Positions 6,786 to 49,714 of a stretch of DNA of 53,993 nucleotides are shown in pieces; within the stretch, counting starts at the first letter, position 1; each line of letters begins with the position of its first letter. Both the position numbers and the translations under genes were made by a program. The notes beneath the pieces are model-generated. The model was not told the origin of the DNA. It ran no database searches and was given only the letters and a program-made list of their open reading frames with translations. Location: IMG/VR virus record IMGVR_UViG_3300049927_000029, positions 1-53,993 of that record; one strand, given 5' to 3'. The stretch comes from a virus. Taxonomy: Duplodnaviria; Caudoviricetes.

Positions 6786-6995
6786 ATGAGCGAATTCAAA
6801 CCTCACGTCCCGAACGGCGCTAGGCGGCCGGTTGGCGTAAAGCCTGAACAGAAGGTTCACGTTCGGGGAGGCGGCCAAGAGCTTATCGCCACAGCCAATC
6901 GTGTCGACTGGCGGAACGTCTCTGCATGGAAAGAGACGGATGCCGAAGCAACCCTGAGCGTTAACTATGCCAATTGTGATGGGGAGTGCGACTAA
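6786..6995 (+). CDS. hypothetical protein
   Basis: tightly packed ORF. Confidence 0.6.
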   Translation: MSEFKPHVPNGARRPVGVKPEQKVHVRGGGQELIATANRVDWRNVSAWKETDAEATLSVNYANCDGECD

Positions 6996-7120
6996 TGAAA
7001 AAGCGCCCAGCTAAACCCAAGATGTCAAAAGTCAACACCAGCGACTGCGCCAAAGGCCAGATGCATGACCAAGTGGCCCAAAAGCTTATGTTCACTACCC
7101 TTTCAGGCTTTATCGCCTAA
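6995..7120 (+). CDS. 41-aa hypothetical protein
   Basis: TAATG overlap, GGGGAG SD; read manually. Confidence 0.5.
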   Translation: MKKRPAKPKMSKVNTSDCAKGQMHDQVAQKLMFTTLSGFIA

Positions 7121-7133
7121 CAGGAGATTCGCC

Positions 7134-7724
7134 ATGCCAACCGGATACACAGCCGATATCAAAGACGGCATTAGCTTTGAACAATTCGCCCTTAACTGCG
7201 CTAAGGCGTTCGGCGCCTGCATTTCGATGCGTGACCTTCCAGCGGATACGCCGATCCCTGAGCGCTTCGTAGCGTCGCCTTATCACCTCGACCAGCTTAC
7301 CCAAGCTCGTAACCTGCTCCGCTTCTACGAGGGCTTCTCGCCGGAGGAAGCGACGCGCAAAGCCAACGAGGAGTTTGCCGATGCAGAGTTGAACCGCAAC
7401 CGCCGGCTGCATGAAAACAAAACCTTGCTCGAGCATTATCAAGCGATGCTTCGGCAGGCGAACGAATGGACGCCGCCGTCTGAGGATCATGCCGAGCTGA
7501 AGAAATTCATGATTCAGCAGATCGAAGACAGCATGAAGTGGGACGACAGCAGCGAATACCTGTCGGTGCCTACGCCACAGCTAAGCGCCGAAGAGTGGCT
7601 TGAGAGCAAGAAGGCGAAAGCGCTCAAAGATGTCGAGTACCACAAAAAGGAATGGGCGGCGGAAGTTGAGCGGACCGAACAGCGCAACACCTGGCTGCAA
7701 CAGCTTCGAGAATCTTTGGCGTGA
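7134..7724 (+). CDS. hypothetical protein (MPTGYTA..., helical)
   Basis: AGGAG SD before ATG 7134. Confidence 0.75.
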   Translation: MPTGYTADIKDGISFEQFALNCAKAFGACISMRDLPADTPIPERFVASPYHLDQLTQARNLLRFYEGFSPEEATRKANEEFADAELNRNRRLHENKTLLEHYQAMLRQANEWTPPSEDHAELKKFMIQQIEDSMKWDDSSEYLSVPTPQLSAEEWLESKKAKALKDVEYHKKEWAAEVERTEQRNTWLQQLRESLA

Positions 7725-13554: not shown

Positions 13555-16203
13555 TTATTCAAAGGCTTCTGGAAAATCTATTTCCACTTGGCGCCGCATT
13601 AGCAAATGCCCAGTAGCGTTAGGGTGAACGCCGTCACCTACATAGTATGCGGAGTTGAAAACGGTTCCGTCAGGTCCGCCCAAAGCTGTCGCCATGTTAA
13701 TTATACGGTAACTGCCAAAATACCCTGATGTGATATCCAAGTTTTGGGCGGTTACCTGGGCTTGCCTAGCAGGGCGAGGAACTTGGGTGACAAGGATCGG
13801 AATGGCCGCCCTGGCCAACGCCCTGGCAATCAACGCCGCATAGTTTGTGCGGAACGCCGCTTGATCAACATCGTTCGTGCCCACAGCCAAGATCACATAA
13901 GTCGGTGAGAACGGGTCTAAGTCAGCCGCGCAGCAGTCCAGTGCATCCGTGGTAGTGTTGCCGCCCTTGGCCGAAAGCAGTAGATCACCTTTTGCCCTTT
14001 CAGCATCTACCAGATATGGCCAGCAGGACGCCCAAGAAGCGCCATTGTCCGAACCTTCCGAAATACTGTCACCGATGATCGTGATATACGGCGCCTGTTT
14101 GCACTGGGTGATCACGTCAATTTTGATGACCTCCACCGTACCCGACATGTGCATAAAGCCCGGCTTGCCATGCTGCGCGCCAGCATCAGGGGAGCCATCG
14201 CCCTGAGACTGCGTAATCGTAGTGGTTGCCTGCGTTACCGTATCGACCAGGGTGCATACGGTGCTTATGCCATCCTTTTTGGCGGTCAATACATAGTCAC
14301 GGCCTGCGACCAGTGCTGCCGCGAGCGCTACGGATTTCGAGAGCGTGACCGTGGAGCCGGTGAACAACGATAACGTGAGGGTTCCCGCAGCACCGTTGAC
14401 CATTAGGGTTGTGCCACGGGTGCCACGCGGCGGGCGCCACTGCAAGCCGAAGTTAGACGTGCTATCGGTAAACCGGATCCGCGCCCGCGTTACTTTGCGG
14501 CTGGCGATACTGGAATTGCCGTAGTAGGCCACCGCCGTTACCGCACCCGCCCCGGTCGATTTCAGGGCATTGGCGACAGTCCATACACCCCCTGCCAGGG
14601 TCCACAGGGTTGGCGTGACCGATCCCGGAAACGCTTCCGACAACACGGACAACTTGCCGCGCAGAGCATTGGACACTTGGGGCATCGATACCGGGTTCAA
14701 CGCGGCGATGGCTTGGGCGTTTGCAACCGAGTTGTTATAAGCCGATTTTGCCATCGTACTAGTGGACGTCAAGCTAGCTACCGTCTCAACTACAGCCCCA
14801 ATTTGAAGGACGTAGGCGTCTGCTACGGCTGCTACGGAGGCACCCAGCAAATCCCCAGCATAGATATAGCTCGAACCGGCTGCGGCGGTAACGCAGGCTG
14901 GGCGGGCAGTGATGCCGTAAAAGCCTAGCGCGTTTCCTGCCGCTACGTTCGTCAGCGGGTAATGCACGCCGCCAACAAACGTGTTCACCCCGACAACGCA
15001 CGTCACAGCGAATTCTTGCGATAGCCCGTAAACGCCCTCGGAGATGCGGTTCAGCAGCTTTATTTTCCCGGTGCCGGCTGTCATGGCATACACAGAGACC
15101 GACTTCATTTCCCCCGCTGCCGCGAACGTAGCCGCCGCGATACGTGTGCGCGAAGCGTTCTCGGTGGCTCCAGACGCTGGTGGTACGACGTTATAGGTGG
15201 CCTGAGTACCTGAGAGCTGGTTGGCCGACGCAATTAGCTGCGAATAGCTCAGGCCGACACCGACAACCGCCTGAATCTGCATGACGTTGACGGTCGACGT
15301 GACCACCTGGTTAGCGCCGGTAAGGTCACCCGGAAAAATCAAACTCGACGCCGCCGGACCGGTCGAGGTCAGCGATGTGCGCCCGACAAAGGTAGCCACC
15401 GCGATAGTGTCGTCAGTCGTGACATTGATACTGAAGAAATGGGTTCCCACGTTGAACACGTTTATGCCGACCGCCAGGGTCACTGCGAATTCGCTGATAA
15501 ACGAGTAAGACAGCGCCCCGGTTTTGCGAACGACCTTCACCTTAGCGGTGCCTGCCGTCTCCGCATAGACGGTGACCTGCTTCAAGTATCCAGCTTCTTT
15601 GAACAACGTACCCTCAATTCTGGTACGCGAGGTGTTTTCTGGTACGCCAGTCAATGCTGGAGCGGCCCTGAACTCTGCCGGATACTGCCCTGCGAGCTGA
15701 ATGCCAATTCCCTGCACAAGAGCCGTGCTTGGGGACCGGCCTATCTCCACCGCGACCCCTGCATCATTTCGATAGGCGATGGCTAGTGAGTCAGCTGTTG
15801 AGGGCACGGAGAAAAGGCGGTTCGTAGCGCCGGTGCCTGATGTATTGGCTAGACCATCGGCCGTCGTCAGAAAACCATGCGCTAAAGCTGCGGCAACAGA
15901 TGCCGAAAGCTCAGAAGAGATTGCCGAGTTCTGCGCCGCCTGAGCAGAGCCAAGTGCGGCGGATGCGGATGCGGCGGAGGCCGTAGACGACGAAACACTA
16001 ATATCCTTCGCGGCCTCAGATGTAGCGGCCTGCACAGCGGCCTCGCCCGCTGCTGCCTGAGAGTCTTCTAACAGTTGCTCGAGTTCCGGGGTTACGCCCC
16101 CCGTATTTCCGGTGTCGCCCTTGTCCCCTTTGTCGCCCTTGATAAAGGCAGCAACCTCCGCAGGAATTACCCCAGGCGTGCCGGGGATCAAATCGATATT
16201 CAT
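13555..16203 (-). CDS. tail fibre/spike with C-terminal SGNH hydrolase
   Basis: GDKGDKGD collagen start, Ala/Ser-rich shaft, GDSIS..GGNT..GTND..DGVHPN. Confidence 0.8.
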   Translation of the reverse strand: MNIDLIPGTPGVIPAEVAAFIKGDKGDKGDTGNTGGVTPELEQLLEDSQAAAGEAAVQAATSEAAKDISVSSSTASAASASAALGSAQAAQNSAISSELSASVAAALAHGFLTTADGLANTSGTGATNRLFSVPSTADSLAIAYRNDAGVAVEIGRSPSTALVQGIGIQLAGQYPAEFRAAPALTGVPENTSRTRIEGTLFKEAGYLKQVTVYAETAGTAKVKVVRKTGALSYSFISEFAVTLAVGINVFNVGTHFFSINVTTDDTIAVATFVGRTSLTSTGPAASSLIFPGDLTGANQVVTSTVNVMQIQAVVGVGLSYSQLIASANQLSGTQATYNVVPPASGATENASRTRIAAATFAAAGEMKSVSVYAMTAGTGKIKLLNRISEGVYGLSQEFAVTCVVGVNTFVGGVHYPLTNVAAGNALGFYGITARPACVTAAAGSSYIYAGDLLGASVAAVADAYVLQIGAVVETVASLTSTSTMAKSAYNNSVANAQAIAALNPVSMPQVSNALRGKLSVLSEAFPGSVTPTLWTLAGGVWTVANALKSTGAGAVTAVAYYGNSSIASRKVTRARIRFTDSTSNFGLQWRPPRGTRGTTLMVNGAAGTLTLSLFTGSTVTLSKSVALAAALVAGRDYVLTAKKDGISTVCTLVDTVTQATTTITQSQGDGSPDAGAQHGKPGFMHMSGTVEVIKIDVITQCKQAPYITIIGDSISEGSDNGASWASCWPYLVDAERAKGDLLLSAKGGNTTTDALDCCAADLDPFSPTYVILAVGTNDVDQAAFRTNYAALIARALARAAIPILVTQVPRPARQAQVTAQNLDITSGYFGSYRIINMATALGGPDGTVFNSAYYVGDGVHPNATGHLLMRRQVEIDFPEAFE

Positions 16204-16511
16204 GGGCGCGTAACCTTTTCGACGATATTAAAAAGAAGAGTTGACGTAGGGATAACCGCGACTGGGTCTTCACGCCGCAGGCTAATATCGAACACGGCAG
16301 GGCCTATACGCCAAATGCTTGTATCTGCCACCTGGAGGGATAGCGACATCGTAGTCAAGGGGTCGACCCACTCAATAGGAACCTGGGCGATCAACCGACT
16401 AGCGAAATCTCGCAGCTGACACGTGGGAACGAACCCGACGAAGGTGCCCGGCTCCAGCCACTCGGGGAGGATAACCACGTAGTCGAAAGTAGCGCCGCGC
16501 TTATGTTCCAT
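16200..16511 (-). CDS. small beta-rich protein, putative fibre adaptor
   Basis: HKRGATFD..QLRD..FDI..STL..VTR; coupled to the fibre gene. Confidence 0.6.
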   Translation of the reverse strand: MEHKRGATFDYVVILPEWLEPGTFVGFVPTCQLRDFASRLIAQVPIEWVDPLTTMSLSLQVADTSIWRIGPAVFDISLRREDPVAVIPTSTLLFNIVEKVTRP

Positions 16512-16654
16512 GGGCTTTGTGCTCTATAGGTCTTGCGCGCGAGTATGCGGCTTTACGCTGTCAAGGGTCAACCGTGCAGCTTTTGTGCGAGAGGCTAAAG
16601 GTTATCCTGATAACAGTTAATTTGGCTTTTTGTTGACCGTTCGTCGGTATACGC

Positions 16655-16683
16655 AAGACAATACAAGTAACACGTTGTACAGT
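16655..16683 (+). promoter_or_regulatory. early sigma70-like promoter, third copy
   Basis: AAGACA-ATACAAGTAACACGTTG-TACAGT. Confidence 0.6.
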
Positions 16684-16718
16684 TGGCGTATCGAAACCAA
16701 ACAGTAGGGAGAAGGGGA

Positions 16719-16925
16719 ATGTGCAAAGTATGCGACGGCACTGCTGATAATCGCGGCCACGTTTGGCAGCTTGGCGAAGACGGCAAGCCGGACTATTTCG
16801 CCTTCGAAGAGGGCGATCATAACGGGTATTGTTGCATCCGCTGCGGCTATATCTTCTGCCATCACTGCGAAGACGGTCCACAAGAAGATTGTACCTTCAT
16901 CGACCAAGAGGAGATGCCACTGTGA
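16719..16925 (+). CDS. Cys-rich hypothetical protein
   Basis: CKVC..CIRCG..CHHC; GGGAG SD. Confidence 0.6.
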   Translation: MCKVCDGTADNRGHVWQLGEDGKPDYFAFEEGDHNGYCCIRCGYIFCHHCEDGPQEDCTFIDQEEMPL

Positions 16926-17065
16926 AAAACCGTCGCCTTTACACCGGAATCCAGACAACCGATATGTCCGCCGGCTATGTCCGCCGCATTGAGCCTTTCG
17001 CTGTTACCGAGCAGTTCTACATGCTCGGCGACCATGGGTGCTACTGTCCAATTTTCTATCGTTGA
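16922..17065 (+). CDS. hypothetical protein
   Basis: GAGGAG SD, GTGA overlap. Confidence 0.45.
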   Translation: MKNRRLYTGIQTTDMSAGYVRRIEPFAVTEQFYMLGDHGCYCPIFYR

Positions 17066-17076
17066 GGACTTCAAGC

Positions 17077-17193
17077 ATGAATCTGACATTCAGCATACAG
17101 TGCTACAAGAAGCTCCGCGCCAAGGGGTACAAACCCGCCGCCGCGCTATACGCGGCTAGGTTCTACAAATCCCTTTATCCGTTCATCGTCTAG
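17077..17193 (+). CDS. 38-aa hypothetical protein
   Basis: GAGGA SD; read manually. Confidence 0.45.
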   Translation: MNLTFSIQCYKKLRAKGYKPAAALYAARFYKSLYPFIV

Positions 17194-17204
17194 GAGCAAC
17201 AAAA

Positions 17205-17351
17205 ATGACCTTCACCGTCAAGCAACAACATGGCCGCTACGACGTCATTGGCTACGGCATGATCCTCGATAGCTTCGACAGCGAGCAGGCGGCAGAGCAA
17301 GAAGCCTCTCGTATGAACGCGGAATACGAGCGCGTCCTGAGTTTCCTGTAA
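17205..17351 (+). CDS. 48-aa hypothetical protein
   Basis: AGGAG SD; read manually. Confidence 0.5.
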   Translation: MTFTVKQQHGRYDVIGYGMILDSFDSEQAAEQEASRMNAEYERVLSFL

Positions 17352-17409
17352 GGCCCTTTCATACCCGAATAACAACAGCGCACATACGGTAATGCGCCAT
17401 GGAGTTCCA

Positions 17410-17562
17410 ATGACGGCGTTTGAACAAGGATACGAGGCCTTCCTGAAAGGCCTGCAGCGCGACGAGAATCCCTTTGACGAAGAGTCATGTTCGTTCTCTC
17501 GCCGCCGTTGGGTAGAGGGTTGGAACAAGGCATACCGCGCCAGGGAGGAAAAACAGACATGA
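17410..17562 (+). CDS. ribosome modulation factor (Rmf/CrpP-fold)-like protein
   Basis: AFEQGYEAFLKG..ENPF..RRRWVEGWNKA; GGAG SD; ATGA-coupled to phaZ; not in the ORF track. Confidence 0.65.
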   Translation: MTAFEQGYEAFLKGLQRDENPFDEESCSFSRRRWVEGWNKAYRAREEKQT

Positions 17563-18356
17563 TTATCCGCACCGTAGCCATCAACGGTCAGCAAATCAGA
17601 GTCGCTGAGCGCCTCGGTAGTCCATCCTTGCCGCCTTTGCTGATCTTCAACGGCATAGGGGCTAGCCTCGAACTGGTCCTACCCTTCGCTGATCGGCTAG
17701 ACCCGAAGCAGGGCTTCATCGCGTTCGACGTACCCGGCGTGGGAGGCTCGCCTACACCCTTCCTGCCGTACCGCTTCAGCTGCATCGCCAGATTGACCAC
17801 GAAGCTCCTGGACCTGCTAGGGCACGCCCGTGTAGACGTAATCGGGCTGAGCTGGGGCGGCTTCTTAGCGCAGCAGTTTGCTTACGACCATCCCACGCGC
17901 TGTAGGCGTCTGATTTTGGCGGCTACGTCGTGCGGGGTTGCGATGGTCCCTCCGGCGCTCAGGGTACTGGCACTGATGGCTAGCCCGAAACGCTACACCG
18001 ATCCAGAATACGCGGCGACTATCGCGCCAGAGATTTATGGCGGGGCTTTCCGTACCAATAGGGATCTGTGCGTCTCGCATGCCGCAAAAATGCAATCCTC
18101 CGGGGGGTTGGGGTATTACTACCAAGGAGCAGCCGTGTACTGGTGGACCTCCTTACATTGGCTGCACCGGATTGCACAGCGAACTCTAGTCCTCGGAGGT
18201 AATGACGACCCTCTGATTCCGTTAGTGAATACCCGACTGCTAGCCTCTCGGATTCCGAACGCGGATCTGCACATCGTAGACGACGGTCACCTGTTCCTGC
18301 TGACTCAGGCTGACGTAGTTACCCCCTTGATCTCACAGTTCCTGAGACGGCACTGA
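17559..18356 (+). CDS. phaZ: poly(3-hydroxyalkanoate) depolymerase (intracellular mcl-PHA type)
   Basis: PLLIFNGIGA.LELV, AFDVPGVGGS, GLSWGG, DDPLIPL, DDGHLFL; GGGAGG SD. Confidence 0.9.
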   Translation: MIIRTVAINGQQIRVAERLGSPSLPPLLIFNGIGASLELVLPFADRLDPKQGFIAFDVPGVGGSPTPFLPYRFSCIARLTTKLLDLLGHARVDVIGLSWGGFLAQQFAYDHPTRCRRLILAATSCGVAMVPPALRVLALMASPKRYTDPEYAATIAPEIYGGAFRTNRDLCVSHAAKMQSSGGLGYYYQGAAVYWWTSLHWLHRIAQRTLVLGGNDDPLIPLVNTRLLASRIPNADLHIVDDGHLFLLTQADVVTPLISQFLRRH

Positions 18357-18372
18357 TCCGAAGGAGAAGAAT

Positions 18373-18840
18373 ATGGCGGGCAAACGGCAGGTAGAAGCGC
18401 GGTGGGGGTTAGAGTTCTGGCAACTGGTGCGGGACTTTGCGGACCAGGGGCTACCACGGTGCGACGTAGCCAAAGCGCTCGGGTATACCCGAGACGGGTT
18501 TTACGCATTGTTGACAGCTAACCCTAGCCGCGACCCTTTCGAAGGCTCAAACATCGTCGCAGCCTACATCCGAGACTCCGGCGAAGGGTTCCGGGAGGCC
18601 TTGGAGCGTATGAGGGACGAAGGCAGGTCATGGGAATATGCCGCAAAGGCGATCGGGTATTGCGACGGTTCAAGGCTGAAGCGGGCCGCGCAAATGCGGG
18701 GGGTGATGATCGAGCTGCGAGGTAAACCGGGAAGGCCGCGAAGCACCGTATCCCGAAAACCAACCGTGTCGAATTTCACCACTAAATGGCCGAGCTGGAA
18801 CAAAGTTTACGCAATGGGGAAATCCAGTGGATCTAAGTAA
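18373..18840 (+). CDS. tandem-HTH DNA-binding protein
   Basis: DVAKALGY and YAAKAIGY HTH-like segments; PGRPR. Confidence 0.6.
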   Translation: MAGKRQVEARWGLEFWQLVRDFADQGLPRCDVAKALGYTRDGFYALLTANPSRDPFEGSNIVAAYIRDSGEGFREALERMRDEGRSWEYAAKAIGYCDGSRLKRAAQMRGVMIELRGKPGRPRSTVSRKPTVSNFTTKWPSWNKVYAMGKSSGSK

Positions 18841-19900
18841 ATGCATTTTCCTCGACACGGAAACGTTCTGCGAAACGCCCATCGGCAATGGTACGCACCG
18901 TTATGCAGAAGGCGCCGAGATCATCATGTGGCAGTGGGCGGTCGGCGATGGGCCTGTAGAGATTCGCGATGGGGATGAAGACATCAGCGACTTGCTGGAA
19001 CTCTTAGAGGATGAAAGTTATGAAGTGGTTATCCACAATTCGGCGTTTGATCGGAATGTCATCAGACACGCCACCGGAATCGGTATCCCCGTCGAGCGAG
19101 TCTTCGACACCATGGTCTGCGCTATGGCCCACTCTCTCCCCGGGAGCCTTTCTACTGTTGGAACCATCCTTGGCGTTGCCCAAGACAAAGCGAAGGATAA
19201 AGAAGGCCGCGCATGGATTGCGCTATTTTGCAAGCCTCAACCGAAGGGGCGGAAGATTCGTCGTGCGACGCGGAGTACACACCCGATAGAGTGGCAACGC
19301 TTCCGCGACTATGGCGGCCTTGACATCGAGGCGATGCGCGAGATCTACAAAAAGCTGCCACGCTGGAACTACCGCGGCGCTGAACGCGAACTGTGGCATC
19401 TCGACCAGAAGATCAACGAACGCGGCGTGCTGATGGACCTGGATCTGGCACATGCCGCAATCCGCGCTTCAGATCGCGCTCAGAAGATCCACGCGGCTGA
19501 TGCAGTGCGTTTGACCGATGGCGCCGTGACCAGCGCCAACCAGCGCGACAAGATGCTGGAGCACATCCTGGAGGCTTACGGCGTCGGGCTCCCCGATTTG
19601 CAGATCAGCACTTTGGAGCGTCGCATTGACGATCCGGATTTGCCGGTTGAGTTACGCGAACTACTGGCCGTCCGGCTGCAGGCCTCTAAAACGTCTGTCA
19701 GCAAGTACAAACGTGCGATCAGCGGTACGAGTAGTGACGGACGCATGCGCGGCACAGCGGCGTTCTGCGGGGCCATCCGCACGGGCAGGTGGGCGGGCCG
19801 GCTACTTCAGCTGCAGAACCTGCCGAGACCTTCTATCAAGAACAAAGAGATCGATCTGTGGATCGAGGCGCTCAAAAATGACGCGGAAGACCTCGTATGA
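18827..19900 (+). CDS. DNA polymerase A, part 1 (3'-5' exonuclease + thumb)
   Basis: FLDTET, HNSAFD, DIEAM, RTGRWAG..QNLPR. Confidence 0.9.
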   Translation: MDLSKCIFLDTETFCETPIGNGTHRYAEGAEIIMWQWAVGDGPVEIRDGDEDISDLLELLEDESYEVVIHNSAFDRNVIRHATGIGIPVERVFDTMVCAMAHSLPGSLSTVGTILGVAQDKAKDKEGRAWIALFCKPQPKGRKIRRATRSTHPIEWQRFRDYGGLDIEAMREIYKKLPRWNYRGAERELWHLDQKINERGVLMDLDLAHAAIRASDRAQKIHAADAVRLTDGAVTSANQRDKMLEHILEAYGVGLPDLQISTLERRIDDPDLPVELRELLAVRLQASKTSVSKYKRAISGTSSDGRMRGTAAFCGAIRTGRWAGRLLQLQNLPRPSIKNKEIDLWIEALKNDAEDLV

Positions 19901-20616
19901 ATTTGATGAAAGGCGATTGCCTGGAAATGATGAAGCTTATTCCGGAGGGCTCTGTGGAAATGGTGCTTTGTGATTTGCCTTACGGTACGACGCAGAACAA
20001 GTGGGACGCAGTTATCCCATTCGACCAGCTTTGGGCGGAATACCGGCGGATTTGCAAAGGCGCGATTGTCTTGACCGCTGCGCAACCTTTCACATCCGCG
20101 CTAGTTATGAGCAACCCTGGACTATTCAAGTACCAATGGGTTTGGGAAAAGAGCGTGGCAACAAACTTCTTGAACGCCAAGAAACAACCGCTGCGCAATC
20201 ACGAAGACGTACTGGTTTTTTATGCTGAGCAGCCTACCTATAACCCTCAAATGGTGCCAGGGGAACGAAAGACATCTAGACGGGTAGGTACGAAGACAAG
20301 CAACTACGGCAAAGCCGATAAGGAAACTTTTTACGATTCGACCGAGCGCTACCCTCTTAGTGTCCAGCGTTTCGGCTCCAGAATTGACGGTGCAGCACTG
20401 CACCCCACCCAAAAGCCTGTCGCGCTAATGGAATACCTGATCCGTACCTACACGAACGAAGGCGACACCGTTCTCGATAACACCATGGGCAGCGGCACCA
20501 CCGGCGTTGCGTGCGTAAACGCAGGCCGGAAATTCATCGGCATTGAGCGCGATGATAAATACTTTGCCATCGCGCAGAAACGTATCGAAGACGCGATGTA
20601 TGGAGACCTCGTATGA
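19897..20616 (+). CDS. beta-class N4-C/N6-A DNA methyltransferase inserted in the polymerase locus
   Basis: DLPYG motif IV, HPTQKPV, DNTMGSGTTG motif I. Confidence 0.9.
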   Translation: MNLMKGDCLEMMKLIPEGSVEMVLCDLPYGTTQNKWDAVIPFDQLWAEYRRICKGAIVLTAAQPFTSALVMSNPGLFKYQWVWEKSVATNFLNAKKQPLRNHEDVLVFYAEQPTYNPQMVPGERKTSRRVGTKTSNYGKADKETFYDSTERYPLSVQRFGSRIDGAALHPTQKPVALMEYLIRTYTNEGDTVLDNTMGSGTTGVACVNAGRKFIGIERDDKYFAIAQKRIEDAMYGDLV

Positions 20617-22460
20617 CGACGGTGATGGAAGCATGCAGCAGTGCGATACGCGGCCTTATAATCGCACCGCCTAAAAAGAAACTGGCTATCGCGGATTTGT
20701 CAAACGTAGAAGGCAGAGTGCTCGCTTGGCTGGCCGGTGAAGCATGGAAGCTCCAGGCGTTCCGTGAGTACGATACGCAGCTCGGATTAGACGGCGTTTG
20801 GTATACAGGCGAAGAGATCAACGCAGAGGCATTGCGAGGGTCACCAATCCCTGTCGAGCTGAACGCTAAAGGCGATCCAGTAACGCTCGGCCACGACCTT
20901 TACAAACTAGCCTACGCCAAGGCTTTCGGCATTGACGCGGCAGATGTCGACGGGTTCATGCGGCAGATCGGCAAGACCATGGAACTCGCTCTCGGGTTCG
21001 GCGGAGGGTGTGGCGCGTTCATTACCTTCTCGCTCGCATTCAACATCGACCTGGAAGCAATGGCGGAGAAGGCTTACGACAACATCCCAAAAAGCACCAT
21101 GGCTGAAGCCGAAAGCTTCCTCGAATGGCAGCTCGGTCAGGGCAAAAGCCAGTTTGGTTTGAGTGATCGCGCGTACACAGTCTGCGAATCCTTTAAACGC
21201 CTGTGGCGCGAATCCCACCCTGCGATCAGCAGCTACTGGAAGGATCTTGAAGAAACAATCCGTCGCGCGATCAACAACCCCGGACAGACATTGACCTGTC
21301 GAATGCATAAGGTTCGTCGGGACGGCGCTTGGCTTCGAGTCATGTTGCCGTCAGGTCGCTACCTCTGCTATCCATCCCCACGCGTAGAGGACGACGGGCA
21401 GATTACTTATATGGGCATTAACCAGTACAGCCGTAAGTGGGAACGCTTGCGCAGCTATGGTGGAAAATTCGTTGAAAACTGCATCGCCGAGGGGACCGAA
21501 GTTCTTACCGAGAAATTCGGATGGCGGGCTATAGAACGTGTGACACCTGATACCAGAGTGTGGGACGGCGACGAATGGGTATCCTTCTCCCATTGTCATT
21601 ACAGCGGTAAACAAACTACTATTCCAACCTACGGCGTTCACATGACGCCTGATCACTTGGTTTTGACCGAAGAGGGTTGGAAGAATGCATCATCGTGCGG
21701 TGGATATAACCGGGCTGCGTGTCGGTTACCTGACGGCTATCAGATACCAGGGTTCGACCGGAAAGAAATCGATGTGGGAAGTGGCGTGCGATTGCGGGAA
21801 AGTCATTCTGATGGACCCTTCCCAGTTGAAGAAGCACGCAAAGAGAGGAGTTCGGTGCTCATGTGGCTGCATGCGCAAAGCTACCCAATCCGAGAGGAGA
21901 ACACGCCACGGCATGAGTCAGCACCCCGCTTTCGCGGTTTGGCGCGCAATGATCGATCGATGCAGGCTACCGACGCATCATGCTTACAAAAACTATGGCG
22001 GTCGGGGAATAACGGTCTGCGACAGATGGCAGGAGTTATTCGAAAACTTCTGGGAAGACATGGGCGAGAAGTACAAACCGGGGCTGACATTGGAGCGCTT
22101 GGACAACTCGTTAGGCTATTCCAAGGAGAACTGCGACTGGCGTACCCGAAAGCACCAAGCGAACAACACTCGGCGCAACCACTGGTTAGAAACGCCACAC
22201 GGCCGGATGACGCTGATGGAAGCTTCCGAGTTCTACGGAGTGGGCTACACGACTTTGATGTACCGCCTGGATCACGAGTGGCCGATAGAACAAGCGCTGA
22301 TACCCGTAGGGTCTTCGACCTTGTTGATTGCGGACCACGCTCTCGGTTTGTTGTGAGAGGCACCGACGGCTTGCCGCTGATCGTCCACAACTGCACGCAG
22401 GCAGCCGCCCGCGATGTCATTGGGCGATCAATGCCGAGGATTGAAGCATGGAGACCGTAA
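20613..22460 (+). CDS. DNA polymerase A, part 2 (motifs A, B), intein-containing
   Basis: [10 protein letters not shown]; [16 protein letters not shown]; YGGKFVEN|intein|CTQAAARD. Confidence 0.9.
21480..22391 (+). mobile_element. intein (304 aa) in DNA polymerase
   Basis: block [11 protein letters not shown], block [10 protein letters not shown], block F VFDL, block G LIVHN|C. Confidence 0.92.
21685..22356 (+). CDS. HNH endonuclease nested in the +1 frame of the polymerase intein
   Basis: [52 protein letters not shown]; GAGGG SD. Confidence 0.9.
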   Translation: MHHRAVDITGLRVGYLTAIRYQGSTGKKSMWEVACDCGKVILMDPSQLKKHAKRGVRCSCGCMRKATQSERRTRHGMSQHPAFAVWRAMIDRCRLPTHHAYKNYGGRGITVCDRWQELFENFWEDMGEKYKPGLTLERLDNSLGYSKENCDWRTRKHQANNTRRNHWLETPHGRMTLMEASEFYGVGYTTLMYRLDHEWPIEQALIPVGSSTLLIADHALGLL

Positions 22461-22645
22461 AGCAGTTCGACCAGGGTTTCGAGATTGTCGTAACGGTACA
22501 CGACGAAATCATTTGTGAGGCGCCAGACGATCCAGCCTTTAGCGATGGGGTTTTAGCCGCCCTCATGGCCCAAGGCGAAGATTGGACAGAAGGCTTACCG
22601 CTCGCCGCAGCCGGCTTCGAAGCGTATCGCTACCGGAAAGGTTGA
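22448..22645 (+). CDS. DNA polymerase A, part 3 (motif C)
   Basis: [30 protein letters not shown]; GAGGA SD at 22436-22440. Confidence 0.85.
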
Positions 22646-22695: not shown

Positions 22696-22705
22696 GTTAA
22701 ATGCG

Positions 22706-22864
22706 ATGCGCGAACAAGTATATTTCGGTCGGCTTTGTCCGAAGCACCCTGAGCTTAAGGGTGAACGCTGGATCAAGTCATACCGCTGCGTTGAATGCCT
22801 GCGGATCTACGCGAAGAAATACCGCGATGCGAAAAAGGAGATCAAAAATGGCGCCGACGCTTAA
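22706..22864 (+). CDS. 52-aa zinc-finger-like protein
   Basis: YFGRLCPKH..ER..YRCVEC; read manually. Confidence 0.5.
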   Translation: MREQVYFGRLCPKHPELKGERWIKSYRCVECLRIYAKKYRDAKKEIKNGADA

Positions 22865-23384
22865 GGGTTTCACTCGCGAGTATTTGGCGTCGCTGTTCTC
22901 CTACGATCCGGAGACCGGGCGGATTACCCGTTTAGTCACTGCGGGGCCCATAGGTCGATACGGCAAAATACTTGAGTCTCCACATAACGCCGGGTACACC
23001 CAGGTCGCGCACAAAGGTAAACGGATGCTACTGCATCGCTTGGCCTACTTCTTACATACCGGAGAAACCCCGCAGGAAATCGATCACATAAACCATGATC
23101 GGAAGAACAACCGCTCCGAGAATTTAAGGGCCGCAACAAGCTCCTTGAATAAATGCAACGCTCCTATTCGGGTGACGAATAGCTCAGGGTTCAAAGGCGT
23201 TTGGTATGACAAGAGCAGGAATCGCTATACGGCTCAGTTTCAGTACCAAGGGGTAAATCGCCGGTTAGGGAGATTCAAAACTGCTGAAGAGGCTGCGCGG
23301 GCGTATGACAGGGCCGCGGTGGAAGCAGTGGGCGAATTCGCATTGACCAACGCAAAAATGGGATTGCTTAAGGAGTGCGTGTGA
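22848..23384 (+). CDS. HNH-AP2 homing endonuclease
   Basis: HRLAY..IDHINHDRKNNRSENLR..SGFKGV..LGRFKTAEEAARAYD; AGGAG SD before 22848. Confidence 0.9.
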   Translation: MAPTLKGFTREYLASLFSYDPETGRITRLVTAGPIGRYGKILESPHNAGYTQVAHKGKRMLLHRLAYFLHTGETPQEIDHINHDRKNNRSENLRAATSSLNKCNAPIRVTNSSGFKGVWYDKSRNRYTAQFQYQGVNRRLGRFKTAEEAARAYDRAAVEAVGEFALTNAKMGLLKECV

Positions 23385-27106: not shown

Positions 27107-27485
27107 AACGGTAGAAGTAAAAACAACCGACCTACGCGGCAGGCTTTTGGATTGCCTCGTCGCTATGGTGCTAAACGACGCCGAGAAACTGTTCTTCAAT
27201 AGCGACGGCTACACCAACCGTTGGCACAACATCCCGCCGTGCTATTCCTCCGATTGGGATTTCGGCGGCCCTCTCGTTCAAAGCTTCCAAGTGGCTATTA
27301 CGCCTGAAGCGCACGAAGGGAAAGAAGGCACGGAGAGGTCTGAACGTTGGTTGGCGAACATCTATTACGGAGGAGGTGATCAGTATTCTACTGACGCTTG
27401 CGATCACGCTCTTATCGCTGCGTGCCAAGCAATCGTAGCTACGAAGTTCGGGGATACGATTACAGTCCCGAAAGAATTTACTTAG
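27099..27485 (+). CDS. NinX/DUF2591-like protein
   Basis: L.GRLLDCLVA..YSSDWDFGGPL..ALIAACQAIV. Confidence 0.65.
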   Translation: MSETVEVKTTDLRGRLLDCLVAMVLNDAEKLFFNSDGYTNRWHNIPPCYSSDWDFGGPLVQSFQVAITPEAHEGKEGTERSERWLANIYYGGGDQYSTDACDHALIAACQAIVATKFGDTITVPKEFT

Positions 27486-27936
27486 CTGAACGCTTCATCA
27501 ATTCCGACCGGCAGAACCGCAACTCGGCAAACTGCCGGTCGAGTCCTCGCTTCAATTCGAAATAATCCGATCTAACAGAGGCGTCAAGTTCTGCGGTTCC
27601 GCTGACAGCTCCGTCGGGAATGGCTCCATCGGCGCGCACTGCTGGACAACTGGCTTTGACACGCAGCCGCTTAGTGCCATCAGCAACAGCCCGCTCAAGA
27701 GAACTCGTCTCATTTTCTTTACCCGCCTTGTACTCGATGAAGGTTTGTCGGATAGCTTCTGTCCGTGCGCGTGACGCGATTAGCTGTTGGTTCACCGCGT
27801 CCACGTTCGCGTTGATCGCCGTAGCGGTTGCCAGATCGCGTTCCTGTACATCCGTCTCCCAGCGCAACCCCTGGACGTACCACGAACCGGCAGCGCCTAC
27901 CAGAAGCGCCAGCGCGTAGCCGTATGCGGAGTTCAC
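27478..27936 (-). CDS. i-spanin (Rz-like)
   Basis: N-terminal TM, coiled coil, GTKRLRVKASC. Confidence 0.85.
   Translation of the reverse strand: MNSAYGYALALLVGAAGSWYVQGLRWETDVQERDLATATAINANVDAVNQQLIASRARTEAIRQTFIEYKAGKENETSSLERAVADGTKRLRVKASCPAVRADGAIPDGAVSGTAELDASVRSDYFELKRGLDRQFAELRFCRSELMKRSAK
27552..27713 (-). CDS. o-spanin (Rz1-like) lipoprotein embedded in Rz
   Basis: MRRVLLSGLLLMALSG-C lipobox, Pro-rich, 53 aa; read manually. Confidence 0.8.
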   Translation of the reverse strand: MRRVLLSGLLLMALSGCVSKPVVQQCAPMEPFPTELSAEPQNLTPLLDRIISN

Positions 27937-28463
27937 GTCAGTACACTCAGGGCGAGCGTGTACCGGGCTTTGCGATCCTCAAGACCGTTCGTGCCGCCGT
28001 TGATCGCTTTAGTGATATCGGTGAACTGTCCGCCGTCTGCGAGGTTGTTCAGGTTGCGAGTCGACCAGAACCAAACAGCCGACTTCGCTGCCCAGTCGGG
28101 CACCTCCAGAAGATCCGGTTTACGTAGCAGTCGATCGTCGCCGAACAGCGCTTGGCTGCACTTCCCGTAGTTCGTCCGTCCTGTGACCTGGATCAAGCCG
28201 CGCCCGCAGAAATTAGCACCGTCACCCAGCTGCGTGTTGCCTAAGTCTTTGCGTCCGTCGTACTTGGCGAAGTAGCTCGGGCCGCCGAGTTCCTTGGAGT
28301 AAACCAAAGAACCGCTCTCGTGGCCGATCTGCGCCAGGAAGGCAGCGATACGCAATCTGGTATTGATCTGTCCGCCGGCCATAGCTGCGGTGAGAGCGTC
28401 GGCCCATTTTTGGGCGCGGGCGAGGGGGATAGTCATTGCGCGGGCGAGAGTTGAGGCTTCCAT
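27933..28463 (-). CDS. endolysin, glycoside hydrolase family 19
   Basis: FLAQIGHESG..GRGLIQVTGR.NY..SAVWFW..INGG.NGL.DR. Confidence 0.9.
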   Translation of the reverse strand: MEASTLARAMTIPLARAQKWADALTAAMAGGQINTRLRIAAFLAQIGHESGSLVYSKELGGPSYFAKYDGRKDLGNTQLGDGANFCGRGLIQVTGRTNYGKCSQALFGDDRLLRKPDLLEVPDWAAKSAVWFWSTRNLNNLADGGQFTDITKAINGGTNGLEDRKARYTLALSVLT

Positions 28464-28768
28464 CAGACAGGCCTCCGTTGTTTGAACCGAGGCAGCAGCT
28501 TAGCGAGATTACCGCGGCACCTGGCGACTAGGGCGAATACGCAGAGGCACTGGGCGCAGAGAGCCCATAGGAGCGAGCCTATGACTTGCTGTAGCAATCC
28601 CATAGCCACTATGACGGCGAGCCCCGCTGAGCTACCGGCGAGCCCTACGGCGAAGAGGGAAACCCCCGGTCGCCAGCTCGACTGCCGCGGGTGGTATGAC
28701 GCGATAATGATAAAGGTTCCGAAGTAGCCTAACGCACAGACTACTCGTAGGATCGTCTCAAACTCCAT
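28463..28768 (-). CDS. putative holin/antiholin (3 TM)
   Basis: hydrophobic ORF adjacent to the endolysin. Confidence 0.65.
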   Translation of the reverse strand: MEFETILRVVCALGYFGTFIIIASYHPRQSSWRPGVSLFAVGLAGSSAGLAVIVAMGLLQQVIGSLLWALCAQCLCVFALVARCRGNLAKLLPRFKQRRPV

Positions 28769-29138
28769 CTGTATCACTCCGGCGCTTTAACATCGGGATG
28801 CGATCGAGAATAGATTCAAGCCAAGCTGGCAGAGGGCCACTTTTGTCGATCACGTAATAGAACGCTGTAAATAGGACTGCGCCAAGCGCAGAAAGTGCCG
28901 CAGCTACCAGCATGGCTTTCTCGCTCCACGGGGGGCCTCCCCCATAGCAGAACACGCCGCCCGCGTACCCGAGACCGAAGGAGAACAGCCCCAGCTTTAA
29001 GCGCTTCCACCCCGAGGTGGCCATCGGCGCAGCCAGGAAGAAACAGCAACCGAATGCCGCACCTGCTGCGGCCCACGGATGAATCGCGGCGGCCATAAGG
29101 CAGAGTAGCGAGAGGTCGCGAGAACACTGGTCGAACAT
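28758..29138 (-). CDS. putative holin
   Basis: multi-TM ORF at the head of the lysis cassette. Confidence 0.65.
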   Translation of the reverse strand: MFDQCSRDLSLLCLMAAAIHPWAAAGAAFGCCFFLAAPMATSGWKRLKLGLFSFGLGYAGGVFCYGGGPPWSEKAMLVAAALSALGAVLFTAFYYVIDKSGPLPAWLESILDRIPMLKRRSDTDGV

Positions 29139-42949: not shown

Positions 42950-42973
42950 AAAAAGAACCCGCCGAAGCGGGTC
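42950..42973 (-). terminator. rho-independent terminator after tRNA
   Basis: GACCCGC-TTCG-GCGGGTT-CTTTTT on the - strand. Confidence 0.75.
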
Positions 42974-43046
42974 AAGGAGGGCACGACGGGAATAGGCCTC
43001 GGAATTTTTATCGAGGCTCCGAGTCCTCTTTTTGGCGCTGGTTGAC

Positions 43047-43122
43047 TGGCGACGAGGCTAGGACTCGAACCTAGAACGCACGGCTTTGGAGGCCGGCATG
43101 TTGCCAATTACACTACCTGGTC
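43047..43122 (-). tRNA. tRNA-Trp (CCA)
   Basis: 76-nt cloverleaf; loop CTCCAAA; GGTTCGAGTCC; G73 and encoded CCA. Confidence 0.85.
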
Positions 43123-43306: not shown

Positions 43307-43335
43307 ACTCTAGTCACTCGCATCACAAGTGTCAA
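43307..43335 (-). promoter_or_regulatory. sigma70 promoter for ncRNA-tRNA unit
   Basis: TTGACA-N17-TAGAGT on the - strand, predicted +1 near 43300. Confidence 0.7.
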
Positions 43336-43870
43336 CAACCTTTTGCAACTCTTTTTCCAACATGCCTAAACGATACGCTGAAAGCGAAGTCTCTCTACTG
43401 CAATTCACGACGTCAGCCTTCCGCGCTAACCGGGTGTGTTGCTTGTTCCACTTCCTGCACAACGCTTCGTCGGGGTTCTTCGTATCGGTATGGTCGCCGT
43501 GCCAGTGCGTACCGCTTTGCACCGTGCAGTCATACCCGAGAAGCAAAACGCGTTCCGCGCCTAGCTGAAAGGCCAGTTCGATCGCTCTCAAGCCCGAATT
43601 ATATTCACCGTAAGCGGTGTGCAGGTTCAAAGAGTGTTTTGCGGATGCCTGGCGGGTACACGTCCACCGCTTAGAGCCTTCGGGCACTTCACTAATATAA
43701 GCATCCCACCACGCGAGATCACCCGCGTAAAGGTGATCGCACCATGGGGCTAGCTGCCAGGAGTTGTTCACAGCGATTGTAGGGAGGCCGGAGGCGCGGA
43801 CCCGTTCGCAATCGTGCGCGTTGAGGCTTGGGCCGGAGGCGATGCAGACGAAGGTTTTAGAGGATTGCAC
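43310..43870 (-). CDS. MAF/DUF115-like glycosyltransferase-fold protein
   Basis: CIASGPSL..IAVNN..NSG..AIELAFQLGAERVLLLGYD; GTG start with AGGA SD. Confidence 0.65.
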   Translation of the reverse strand: MQSSKTFVCIASGPSLNAHDCERVRASGLPTIAVNNSWQLAPWCDHLYAGDLAWWDAYISEVPEGSKRWTCTRQASAKHSLNLHTAYGEYNSGLRAIELAFQLGAERVLLLGYDCTVQSGTHWHGDHTDTKNPDEALCRKWNKQHTRLARKADVVNCSRETSLSAYRLGMLEKELQKVVDTCDASD

Positions 43871-44198
43871 GTGGCTGGTGTTCCTATTCTGGTAGCGCGC
43901 CCCTGAGTGACGTTGCTTACAGCCATGGCATACAGGTATCGACTTACATGTAGGACTTGTCCGGGAACTCAGATCCCGACTCCAGTGATGCGAAACGGTG
44001 GCCGCTGTCCGAAGAGACGCATTATTAAGCCATTCGCCGCACGTGCTTCTAGTTACGATTGGTAGCGGCATCTTAAACGGCTACCCGGCGTCCTCTACAC
44101 GGCTTGGTCAGGCGCGAGACACCACAGTCAATGTGCACGAACTTGGCACCCGAGGGTGGTAAAACATCCGTTTAGCTCAAATAAGTGACCCGAACATT

Positions 44199-49657: not shown

Positions 49658-49676
49658 AGTTTCCGGTCCCGTAGAA

Positions 49677-49714
49677 AACAAAAAGCCGGTAGAGGATCGC
49701 CCCCTACCGGCTTT
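49677..49714 (-). terminator. rho-independent terminator after the capsid gene
   Basis: AAAGCCGGTAG/CTACCGGCTTT stem with T-rich tail on the - strand. Confidence 0.75.

Follow-up and report, generated by a model that had tools for sequence, protein, structure and literature searches.

The PhaZ depolymerase of Pseudomonas putida KT2440/KT2442 (PhaZKT) is the model enzyme for the intracellular mobilization of mcl-PHA, seemingly a Pseudomonas-specific trait (PMC12504323, in the text available). The same available text describes a catalytic triad of Ser102/Asp221/His248, a lid spanning residues 133–192, an essential FNGIG loop (residues 34–38, with Asn35) and a hinge motif, YYWQLF, the deletion of which abolishes activity. 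In phages, the description found concerns the Ralstonia jumbo phages RP12 and RP31, where RP12 ORF269 and RP31 ORF266 are listed as “poly(3-hydroxyalkanoate) depolymerase” in the accessible part of PMC5468394, while the sequence records call the gene “esterase/lipase” or “hypothetical protein”. A literature search of article texts returned this annotation line as the only published phage PhaZ of the TIGR02240 family, and no paper on a PHA depolymerase of this type as a phage auxiliary metabolic gene.

Here, we compare these systems with a phaZ-like gene found in the window, by which we mean the whole stretch of 53,993 nucleotides that was analyzed. The window is the complete 54-kb genome of a tailed soil phage (CheckV 100%, from the virus record), and the features discussed below are located in it as follows.

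16633..16662, + strand: match to a sigma70-like promoter where the rightward genes begin (consensus scan, 9/12 matches)
17188..18837, + strand: 1.65-kb slot with exchangeable cargo (orf48, RMF-like, phaZ, orf155), bordered by conserved sequence
17205..17351, + strand: 48-aa orf48, first gene of the cargo block, of no known family
17410..17562, + strand: ORF of 50 aa resembling ribosome modulation factor (RMF-like); it may instead start at ATG 17392, giving a longer product
17543..17549, + strand: Shine-Dalgarno-like GGGAGGA, about 10 nt before the phaZ ATG, read from the sequence
17559..18356, + strand: phaZ-like gene, 265 aa, alpha/beta hydrolase with a helical lid
18373..18840, + strand: 155-aa orf155, closing the cargo block between phaZ and DNA polymerase
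18827..19900, + strand: split family-A DNA polymerase, N-terminal portion with the 3'-5' exonuclease (PHROG 17, Pfam DNA_pol_A_exo1)
27478..29138: lysis cassette, apart from phaZ, which adjoins replication genes

Sequence assigns the phage-encoded product of 17559–18356 to the intracellular mcl-PHA depolymerase family, as the original prediction had proposed. The open reading frame runs from an ATG at 17559 to a TGA at 18354–18356, in agreement with the predicted coordinates and length, and its product scores 372.3 bits (E 1.5e-111, profile positions 3–264 of 276) against TIGR02240, the NCBIfam equivalog model of the Pseudomonas-type intracellular mcl-PHA depolymerase, which has a cut-off of 250.6 bits. 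P. putida PhaZ itself reaches 620 bits on this model. The Pfam match is Abhydrolase_1. The best matches are PhaZ proteins and not unrelated esterases, the outcome that had been named as counting against the prediction. The proposed colinearity with the Pseudomonas enzyme is borne out: P. putida PhaZ is 61% identical across 100% of the phage query, and the alignment is gap-free bar one 1-residue column in other sequences, with differences at the ends, where about 4 N-terminal and about 17 C-terminal residues are absent from the phage protein. The three predicted motifs could also be located, as IGLSWGG (Ser98), NDDPLIP (Asp216/Asp217) and VDDGHLF (His244), and together they supply the Ser-Asp-His triad. 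Ser98 (in GLSWG, the GxSxG box), Asp217 and His244 align with Ser102, Asp221 and His248 of PhaZKT, and not one of the 220 aligned homologs departs from these three residues. The FNGIG loop occupies F30-N31-G32-I33-G34, with Asn31 (Asn35 of PhaZKT) present in 218 of the 220, and the lid region is of PhaZKT length and aligns without gaps. An AlphaFold2 model (pLDDT 95.3, pTM 0.93) has an alpha/beta core, with the lid formed by helices 134–194 (block pLDDT 86–97).

Similarity of this kind could also be retained by a hydrolase that is active but has come to act on a different ester, such as other lipids, short-chain PHB, acyl-homoserine lactones or small esters, and that does not serve mcl-PHA mobilization. 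Among solved structures, those closest in fold are lidded esterases (TM 0.86–0.88); they include general esterases as well as an enol-lactonase and an esterase that degrades AHLs, and enol-lactonases are also the second-best NCBIfam families. However, the phage protein stands 120 bits over the TIGR02240 cut-off and 270 bits above the next family (PcaDC, 98.9 bits), and both the identity to a characterized enzyme and the gap-free lid argue against such a drift; PhaZKT itself is described as highly substrate-specific in the available text of PMC12504323.

The departures from cellular PhaZ that would favor such a drift lie in the hinge and at the C-terminus. The hinge reads YYYQGA in window PhaZ, as opposed to YYWQLF in all 80 cellular copies compared, and the C-terminal tail, 15–22 residues long in the same 80 cellular loci, is replaced by 3 residues past the core, leaving no counterpart to the disordered tail formed by residues 266–283 of PhaZKT. 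A short C-terminus is found in the 18 closest viral loci as well, and the viral copies checked also differ in the lid-hinge motif. Given the changed hinge and the absent tail, regulation, granule binding and even substrate could differ from those of cellular PhaZ. The Ralstonia phages RP12/RP31 add to the case for drift, as they carry a member of the family and their host makes short-chain PHB, not mcl-PHA, which weakens a strict “mcl-PHA only” view of the PhaZ family in phages. Having weighed both sides, we consider a shift to another substrate unlikely and prefer a competent PhaZ-type mcl-PHA depolymerase.

Putative expression signals accompany the gene, in line with the strong ribosome-binding site and coupling noted in the original prediction. 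The GGGAGGA site lies just upstream, and the TGA (17560–17562) of the upstream 50-aa RMF-like ORF overlaps the phaZ start as ATGA, an arrangement that fits translational coupling. The gene 3' of phaZ begins 17 nt past the phaZ stop and is preceded by GAAGGAG. Exonuclease, SSB and tail-fiber genes are found upstream of phaZ, which belongs to a same-strand run that opens after a divergent intergenic region and continues downstream into the DNA polymerase, methyltransferase and helicase genes. The description of this run as an “early operon” holds in part: a same-strand run into replication genes and a weak sigma70-like site are there (the scan gave 3 sites against 1.4 expected), and early expression is a prediction. 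No RNA run was among the sequencing runs that contain the stretch, a result that points neither way.

phaZ occupies a slot whose content is replaceable. In a 28-kb contig from run X4, positions 17187 and 18838 are linked by 1345 nucleotides of other sequence, contigs from run X3 show loose ends at both 17187 and 18839, and 12 related IMG/VR loci keep the RMF-like gene and the DNA polymerase with different ORFs between them. The split DNA polymerase is the conserved right flank of the slot, with 75–96% aa identity across 12 related loci. From these comparisons, phaZ is dispensable for this phage type, since twelve close relatives lack it. This is what would be seen if phaZ were a neutral passenger from a recombination hot spot, having no effect on infection or not being expressed, and dS of the window copy itself is saturated against every DNA relative (NG86 undefined or >3). 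Against such a passenger stand the intact frame, the Shine-Dalgarno-like site and start/stop coupling, and the retention of all catalytic and lid features. Protein relatives of window PhaZ are also present in other samples at 95%, 81%, 80% and 80% identity, and phaZ recurs on 60 viral contigs of widely differing size. Finally, nine phaZ copies of one related phage group show dN/dS of 0.04–0.10 at dS 0.41–0.64, indicative of strong purifying selection, which, given the saturated dS of the window copy, is established for that different group only. We regard a neutral passenger as highly improbable, and phaZ here is a real and probably functional auxiliary metabolic gene.

The remaining genes of the block are short. 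orf48 has no Pfam or PHROG family and no Atlas match at a value of at least 0.9; its homologs immediately precede phaZ in 17 of the 18 close viral phaZ loci and are missing from all 80 cellular phaZ loci. The idea of orf48 as an obligate PhaZ partner was rejected, as 11 of 28 orf48 loci have no phaZ inside 2.5 kb (one of the 11 stops 28 nt past orf48 and is hence uninformative) and 41 of 60 viral phaZ loci have no orf48-like match. The RMF-like ORF scores 26.7 bits against Pfam PF04957 RMF, slightly under the gathering score of 27.9, and is 36% identical over 36 aa to RMF of a Pseudomonas genome. Another 14 IMG/VR loci contain copies 72–86% identical to it, relatives are found in 20 loci overall, and neither this ORF nor orf48 gave a tblastn match in cultured phages. 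orf155 has no Pfam or PHROG family, and its homologs (39–58% aa identity) precede the DNA polymerase or follow the RMF-like gene in 9 of the 20 RMF-like loci.

A more speculative reading takes the orf48/RMF-like/phaZ/orf155 block as a “dormant-host takeover” cassette, in which an RMF mimic would reset stationary-phase translation while a constitutively active PhaZ liquidates PHA. The mimic, translationally coupled to PhaZ, and PhaZ would jointly allow replication in starved, non-growing soil Pseudomonas, that is, in cells where most phages stall; the loss of the tail and the altered hinge would render PhaZ constitutively active and free of host PHA-cycle control. We hold this cassette to be a doubtful proposition.

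A scan of 66 window ORFs against PHROGs identified terminase, portal, capsid-protease, tape measure and tail genes, together with holin/endolysin/spanin, polymerase, helicase, primase, exonuclease and SSB genes. The same ORFs yielded no integrase or recombinase, which does not by itself prove a lytic lifestyle. The capsid and terminase are 69% and 63% identical, respectively, at the amino acid level to those of the P. aeruginosa siphophages PAJU2 and IME307, the best matches among 50,697 phage records; because these nearest cultured relatives infect P. aeruginosa, we infer a Pseudomonas-like host. For the helicase, the nearest cultured relatives are Caulobacter phages (47%), which gives no host. 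Nucleotide searches against the same 50,697 records with the phaZ gene and with window positions 1–25000 found no match. Pseudomonadaceae genomes contain two exact 27-nt matches and a 35-nt match; these were rejected as a CRISPR or other host link because they fall on a terminator-like hairpin of the window (42950–42976) and are outside repeat arrays. Structural-gene DNA matches are found in 48 of 301 genomes of one family, a single-family count that adds little beyond the PAJU2/IME307 identities. Contigs about 90% identical from run X2, from soil in another study, cover phaZ and the phaZ–orf155 junction and represent an independent occurrence.

A phylogeny against host PhaZ and a survey of phage genomes, both suggested with the original prediction, bear on the history of the gene. 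From about 185,000 species genomes, 591 cellular relatives were obtained, of which the best 80 were compared; all of these 80 are Pseudomonas-type and are 60–63% identical to phage PhaZ. In the tree, the cellular Pseudomonas/Halopseudomonas clade has 100/100 support and the window copy falls outside it, paired with a viral copy (L175, 77% identity, support 100/99). The AU test still allows this pair to be sister to the cellular clade (p = 0.09). Since the best cellular relatives reach merely 60–63% and the window copy pairs with a viral one, phaZ here is, on the evidence of these sequences, not a recent capture from a sequenced host and belongs to a diversified phage-borne lineage. Its relatives on 60 IMG/VR contigs of 5–307 kb are 40–77% identical to the window copy, and three IMG/VR copies score 367–406 bits on TIGR02240. 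A scan of metagenome contigs gave DNA relatives of phaZ no closer than those of the viral scan, the best being 65%. The predicted absence of phaC neighbors extends to the whole window, in which tblastn with Pseudomonas PhaC found no phaC, and phaC is near phaZ in 0 of 18 close viral loci and 0 of 60 overall. Cellular phaZ loci, in contrast, have phaC on both sides in 77 of 80 cases and on one side in the remaining 3, the flanking genes having been confirmed as phaC by Pfam PhaC_N in two loci.

Our preferred reading, to which we assign a probability of roughly 0.72, is that the gene encodes a competent PhaZ-type mcl-PHA depolymerase, acquired as slot cargo, that mobilizes host PHA to support infection. 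The analysis suggests that the phage taps the PHA store of its host during infection. phaZ would have been acquired as cargo in the variable slot that heads the replication-gene run, and PhaZ would be produced alongside the replication genes in an infected Pseudomonas-like cell. There, it may bind the PHA granules of the host and free (R)-3-hydroxyalkanoic acids, which the acyl-CoA synthetase and beta-oxidation of the host would convert to acetyl-CoA and reducing power, feeding the production of phage DNA and virions in soil cells that are short of nutrients and loaded with PHA. We infer this fueling of infection by granule mobilization, as we do the substrate, timing, host and benefit to the phage.

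Would granules be broken down for their energy? The same family evidence also accommodates a purpose other than energy, such as making cytoplasmic space, easing lysis or virion release, or freeing granule-bound proteins such as PhaF, the DNA-binding phasin of the nucleoid–granule complex. Sequence offers no distinction between this and energy supply. Other phages do have phaZ in late or structural regions, for instance between head and connector genes in a group of ~48-kb phages, whereas the window phaZ sits with replication genes and not in the lysis cassette, and we think breakdown for such a purpose quite improbable compared with the supply of carbon and energy.

In many soil and rhizosphere bacteria, PHA serves as the principal store of carbon and energy. 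Should phages bring their own depolymerase, viruses could draw on this store, a point relevant to the infection of starved, slow-growing cells and to soil carbon flow. The phage lineage also offers dozens of diverged natural PhaZ variants as candidates for enzymatic recycling of mcl-PHA bioplastics, those checked being without the disordered tail and with a different lid hinge; the available text of PMC12504323 gives low stability and modest activity as limits of PhaZKT. In Pseudomonas PHA fermentations, such phages would pose a double threat, through lysis and through polymer loss.

Set against PhaZKT, phage PhaZ has the triad, the GxSxG box, the FNGIG loop and the lid length in common. The PhaZKT gene lies between phaC1 and phaC2, whereas the window gene is phage-borne and outside any pha cluster. 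The RP12/RP31 copy is likewise a phage-borne TIGR02240 member (291 bits, above the cut-off), with phaC absent nearby and a short C-terminus (2 residues past the core). However, it is merely 50% identical to window PhaZ, belongs to a 280-kb phiKZ-like virus with a host of another genus, and clusters with distant non-Pseudomonas representatives and not with the window clade, through long-branch joins that make this position unsure. Other phaZ phages in IMG/VR, including a ~48-kb siphophage-like group (L003–L019) and contigs of 80–116 kb and 228–307 kb, have backbones and insertion sites unlike those of the window. Phages of the ~48-kb group carry phaZ as a moron, encoded on the opposite strand and flanked by capsid and connector genes, whereas the window phaZ is co-directional ahead of the DNA polymerase; orf48, directly upstream of phaZ in that group, is shared with the window. 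The capsid of that group is at most 50% identical to those of enterobacterial and Mannheimia phages, which indicates no host. Further afield, a candidate PHB depolymerase auxiliary metabolic gene has been reported in a Gloeobacter prophage (preprint PMC13317609, text available in part), and phage-borne PHA-synthesis genes (phaC, phbB and others) in PHA-producing mixed cultures (PMC12013262, likewise in part). As far as the available text of the two goes, these are genes for short-chain PHB depolymerization or for synthesis, in other hosts and under names from annotation pipelines; neither concerns a Pseudomonas-type mcl-PHA depolymerase, and “phaZ” and “depolymerase” occur 0 times in that of PMC12013262. 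What the available text of both shares with the present genome is the idea of viruses bearing genes of the host PHA cycle.

The gene under study is a real PhaZ carried as phage cargo. As the original prediction had it, the ORF runs on the forward strand from an ATG at 17559 to a stop codon at 18354–18356 and encodes 265 aa that include the GLSWGG, DDPLIP and DDGHLF motifs; a Shine–Dalgarno-like sequence (GGGAGGA at 17543–17549) and the coupling to a small upstream ORF, whose stop overlaps the phaZ start codon as ATGA, are likewise present. The following gene starts 17 nt downstream and is preceded by GAAGGAG. Against the NCBIfam equivalog model TIGR02240 (poly(3-hydroxyalkanoate) depolymerase), phaZ scores 372.3 bits at a cut-off of 250.6, and a second NCBIfam family, a 3-oxoadipate enol-lactonase fusion, reaches 98.9, far under its own cut-off; Pfam recovers only the generic Abhydrolase_1 fold, and PHROGs an “esterase/lipase” family. 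Given these family scores, the ORF lies well beyond chance expectation. In a homologue search over 5.8 billion proteins, the named matches were Pseudomonas and Halopseudomonas PhaZ (59–62% identity over 99–100% of the query), in agreement with the proposed colinearity with the Pseudomonas mcl-PHA depolymerase; identity is 61% to P. putida PhaZ (P0102) and 60% to P. aeruginosa PhaZ (P0119). Protein relatives on other contigs share 95, 81, 80 and 80% identity.

The gene stands in a co-directional run of the following arrangement:

17205–17351, +, orf48, first gene of the run
17410–17562, +, RMF-like ORF, second gene of the run
17559–18356, +, phaZ, third gene of the run
18373–18840, +, orf155, between phaZ and the DNA polymerase gene
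start 18827, +, DNA polymerase, next gene after orf155

The intergenic region ahead of the run is divergent and contains a single weak sigma70-like site. Using the RMF-like protein as query, we found 20 viral-contig loci, 12 of which carry the window's DNA polymerase (75–96% aa identity) and mostly also its exonuclease (75–88%) and SSB (60–99%), and thus belong to the window phage's own family. Neither phaZ nor orf48 occurs within 2.5 kb in any of the 20, and what separates the RMF-like gene from the polymerase in the relatives ranges from orf155 alone to ~2 kb of unrelated ORFs. We also placed contigs of four soil sequencing runs (X1–X4) on 16500–20000. A 28-kb contig from X4 joins 17187 to 18838 with 1345 other letters between them, and contigs from X3 break at 17187 and 18839. 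Contigs from X2, a run of a separate study, are ~90% identical across phaZ (17651–17912), and one spans the phaZ stop and the orf155 start (18039–18541); X1, which may be the window's source, contains the whole stretch. The variable gap in the relatives and the contig boundaries together indicate that phaZ occupies, as cargo, a slot (17188–18837) whose content is replaceable and whose flanks are conserved.

Two neighbours deserve comment in their own right. The RMF-like (ribosome modulation factor-like) ORF, 50 aa long and start/stop-coupled to phaZ, falls slightly short of the Pfam RMF gathering score with 26.7 bits. Over 36 aa it shares 36% identity with a Pseudomonas RMF, and it lacks the basic N-terminal segment of RMF; a phage version of such a ribosome-hibernation factor merits separate study. 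In two unrelated phage backbones, the orf48 product (48 aa, no known family, invariant C-terminus) is encoded directly 5′ of phaZ, namely in 17 of the 18 close viral phaZ loci and in the window. None of 80 cellular phaZ loci has it, 11 of 28 orf48 loci are without phaZ, and the pairing could possibly reflect co-transfer, a common landing site or a functional link.

The window is an entire IMG/VR virus record (53,993 bp; CheckV completeness 100%). The 66 window ORFs that were scanned against PHROGs include genes for the head and tail (small and large terminase, portal, capsid-protease fusion, head-tail adaptor, tail terminator, tape measure, tail proteins and fibres), lysis (two holins, endolysin, spanin) and replication (DNA methyltransferase, helicase, primase-helicase, exonuclease, Gp2.5-like SSB, and a family-A DNA polymerase split by interposed HNH endonuclease genes), with no integrase among them. 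There is one tRNA gene (tRNA-Trp), and GC content along the window is 54–59%. The lack of phaC neighbours noted at the outset extends to the whole window, which has no phaC homologue.

Several features of this genome lie outside the question of phaZ. The polymerase is split over at least three ORFs (18827–19900, 20613–22460 and 22448–22645), with other ORFs at 19897–20616, 21685–22356 and 22701–23384; the DNA methyltransferase gene separates the exonuclease portion from the polymerase portion, within or behind which HNH endonuclease ORFs are found, and a weak endonuclease/Hint-like stretch occurs in the middle ORF as well. The whole may be an intein or homing-endonuclease mosaic. Between the capsid-protease gene and the portal region there is a 398-aa homing-endonuclease-like ORF (48485–49681, −; phrog_314), besides at least five further HNH/homing endonuclease genes. 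At 13555–16203 (−), between SSB and the cargo slot and apart from the other tail genes, is the gene of an 882-aa tail-fibre-like protein that starts with a collagen-like GDKGDKGD stretch and carries a GDSL/SGNH esterase domain (Pfam Lipase_GDSL_2) at the C-terminus; it is probably a fibre that deacetylates the receptor. The neighbour ORF of this gene is common to just one related locus, L168. Inside the structural module, a 253-aa ORF (43310–44071, −) that matches phrog_4603 (annotated alpha-2,3-sialyltransferase) and weakly Pfam MptE-like adjoins the tRNA-Trp gene (43047–43122, −).

The closest relatives of the window phaZ with known genomic context are viral. Scanning IMG/VR with the single protein, we found 18 viral loci at 61–77% identity; with an alignment as query there were 60, the contigs being 5 to 307 kb long and all 60 loci lacking phaC within 2.5 kb. 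PHROG scans of two such loci support their viral nature. In a ~48-kb phage group, phaZ lies on the opposite strand between capsid/decoration and connector/tail genes, and in L002, the closest DNA relative (77%), among small early-type genes. In the ~48-kb loci, phaZ is succeeded by a co-directional gene for a DUF7296 protein of 104 aa (6847–7161, +, in L010), so the moron of that group comprises orf48, phaZ and DUF7296; the ORF after phaZ in L002 (6749–7315, +) matches a PHROG annotated cysteine dioxygenase and may be another metabolic cargo gene. Scanning one genome per species (~185,000), we recovered 591 cellular relatives, the best 80 of which are 60–63% identical to the window PhaZ, with no closer copy in any sequenced species; these 80 are titled Pseudomonas, save one Halopseudomonas, one Paucimonas MAG and one “gamma proteobacterium L18”.

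In the phylogeny against host PhaZ and the phage survey that had been suggested as a check, the window gene does not belong to the clade that sequenced cellular PhaZ form. In a quick 112-row tree, the named Pseudomonas/Halopseudomonas proteins unite (SH-aLRT 97) and the window is placed apart from them, among 77 rows of metagenomic and viral proteins that form a clade of their own (95); in a 42-row quick tree, the cellular clade is nested among viral rows with weak support. A careful 34-row tree (LG+C20+F+G4) recovers the cellular clade (100/100), the window with the viral locus L175 (100/99) and a grouping of 22 of the 24 viral rows (85/85), and an AU test did not reject placing the window pair and the cellular clade together (p = 0.09). 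The trees omit near-duplicates above 85–92% identity and three viral loci with partial genes, and the careful tree also several viral representatives and outgroup rows. Support being mixed across trees, the backbone is unresolved. Among nine phaZ copies of the 48-kb group, one identical pair excluded, pairwise dN/dS is 0.04–0.10 at dS 0.41–0.64. Synonymous sites are saturated in every pair with the window or L002 (dN 0.18–0.36), so that evidence for maintenance of the window's own copy is indirect: intact frame and motifs, and the protein relatives at up to 95% identity on other contigs. That phaZ is a neutral passenger in a hot spot, as a replaceable slot might suggest, seems to us very improbable.

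[quoted passage not shown] The triad columns are invariant in 220 aligned homologues, and Asn31 is kept in 218. According to PMC12504323, the lid of PhaZKT comprises residues 133–192, deletion of FNGIG (34–38) or YYWQLF (190–195) abolishes activity, Asn35 is essential, and residues 266–283 form a disordered C-terminal region. An AlphaFold2 model of the window PhaZ from a 61-sequence alignment (mean pLDDT 95.3, pTM 0.93) predicts an alpha/beta core with a helical insertion at 134–194. No PhaZ family member has a solved structure; the metagenomic esterase Est1 is both the top PDB sequence match (E 1e-20) and the top structural match (TM 0.86–0.88, 28–29% identity), followed by a Bacillus thuringiensis PHB depolymerase (TM 0.79). 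At the hinge, all 80 cellular copies have YYWQLF; the window has YYYQGA, L002 YYYQTG, and the 48-kb group YKLQGM or YKLQGI. A drift of the phage hydrolase to another ester substrate is one way to read such a protein, and an unlikely one in our judgement; we take the window PhaZ to be very probably active.

Our best-supported reading, to which we give a probability of roughly 0.7, is a granule-mobilising PhaZ, its function, host and benefit being what we infer. A functional PhaZ-type depolymerase would be made together with the phage replication genes and would attack host mcl-PHA granules, and the released 3-hydroxyalkanoates would enter host beta-oxidation. The pathway steps in the host follow the established Pseudomonas PHA cycle. 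Clearing of granules for a purpose other than energy would involve the same enzyme, and we consider it improbable. For the host, our best guess from sequence matches is Pseudomonas-like: in the phage collection, the capsid-protease fusion is closest to the P. aeruginosa siphophages PAJU2 and vB_PaS_IME307 (68.7–68.8%) and the large terminase to IME307 (63%), and, of 301 genomes sampled from one Pseudomonas genome's family, 48 contain prophage-like DNA that the structural genes match at 65–69%. The phage genome is a mosaic whose replication genes point away from Pseudomonas, the helicase being 47% identical to Caulobacter phage helicases. Window DNA is found in soil metagenomes.

No study that we found in the full-text literature searched deals with a phage-borne mcl-PHA depolymerase. 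A passage of the RP12/RP31 genome paper gives “a poly(3-hydroxyalkanoate) depolymerase” among annotations, there without further comment (PMC5468394); in a 2026 preprint, a candidate AMG of a Gloeobacter prophage is a PHB depolymerase (PMC13317609), and a 2025 paper describes PHA-synthesis AMGs (PMC12013262). Newly described here are the replaceable slot with both its boundaries, the sister phages that lack phaZ, the RMF-like neighbour, the limits to which orf48 goes with phaZ, the tail and hinge counts over 80 cellular and 19 viral copies, and the unsettled tree backbone. The idea of phages drawing on the polyester reserve of their host is attractive and testable, and the phage PhaZ lineage is a source of diverged enzymes.

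Set against the known kind of enzyme, the window PhaZ is phage-borne, tail-less and outside a pha cluster. Cellular phaZ is flanked by phaC on both sides in 77 of the best 80 relatives and on one side in three, and the order phaC1-phaZ-phaC2-TetR(phaD) was Pfam-confirmed in two of these loci. Past the last core helix there are 15–22 residues in all 80 cellular copies, against 3 in the window, 1–4 in the 18 closest viral loci and 2 in RP12; unlabelled metagenomic PhaZ proteins have both short and long ends, and tail loss is therefore common, not universal, in the lineage. The sole clear relatives from cultured phages (50,697 records) are the Ralstonia phages RP12 and RP31, whose PhaZ is 50% identical to that of the window; on TIGR02240, the one from RP12 reaches 291 bits.
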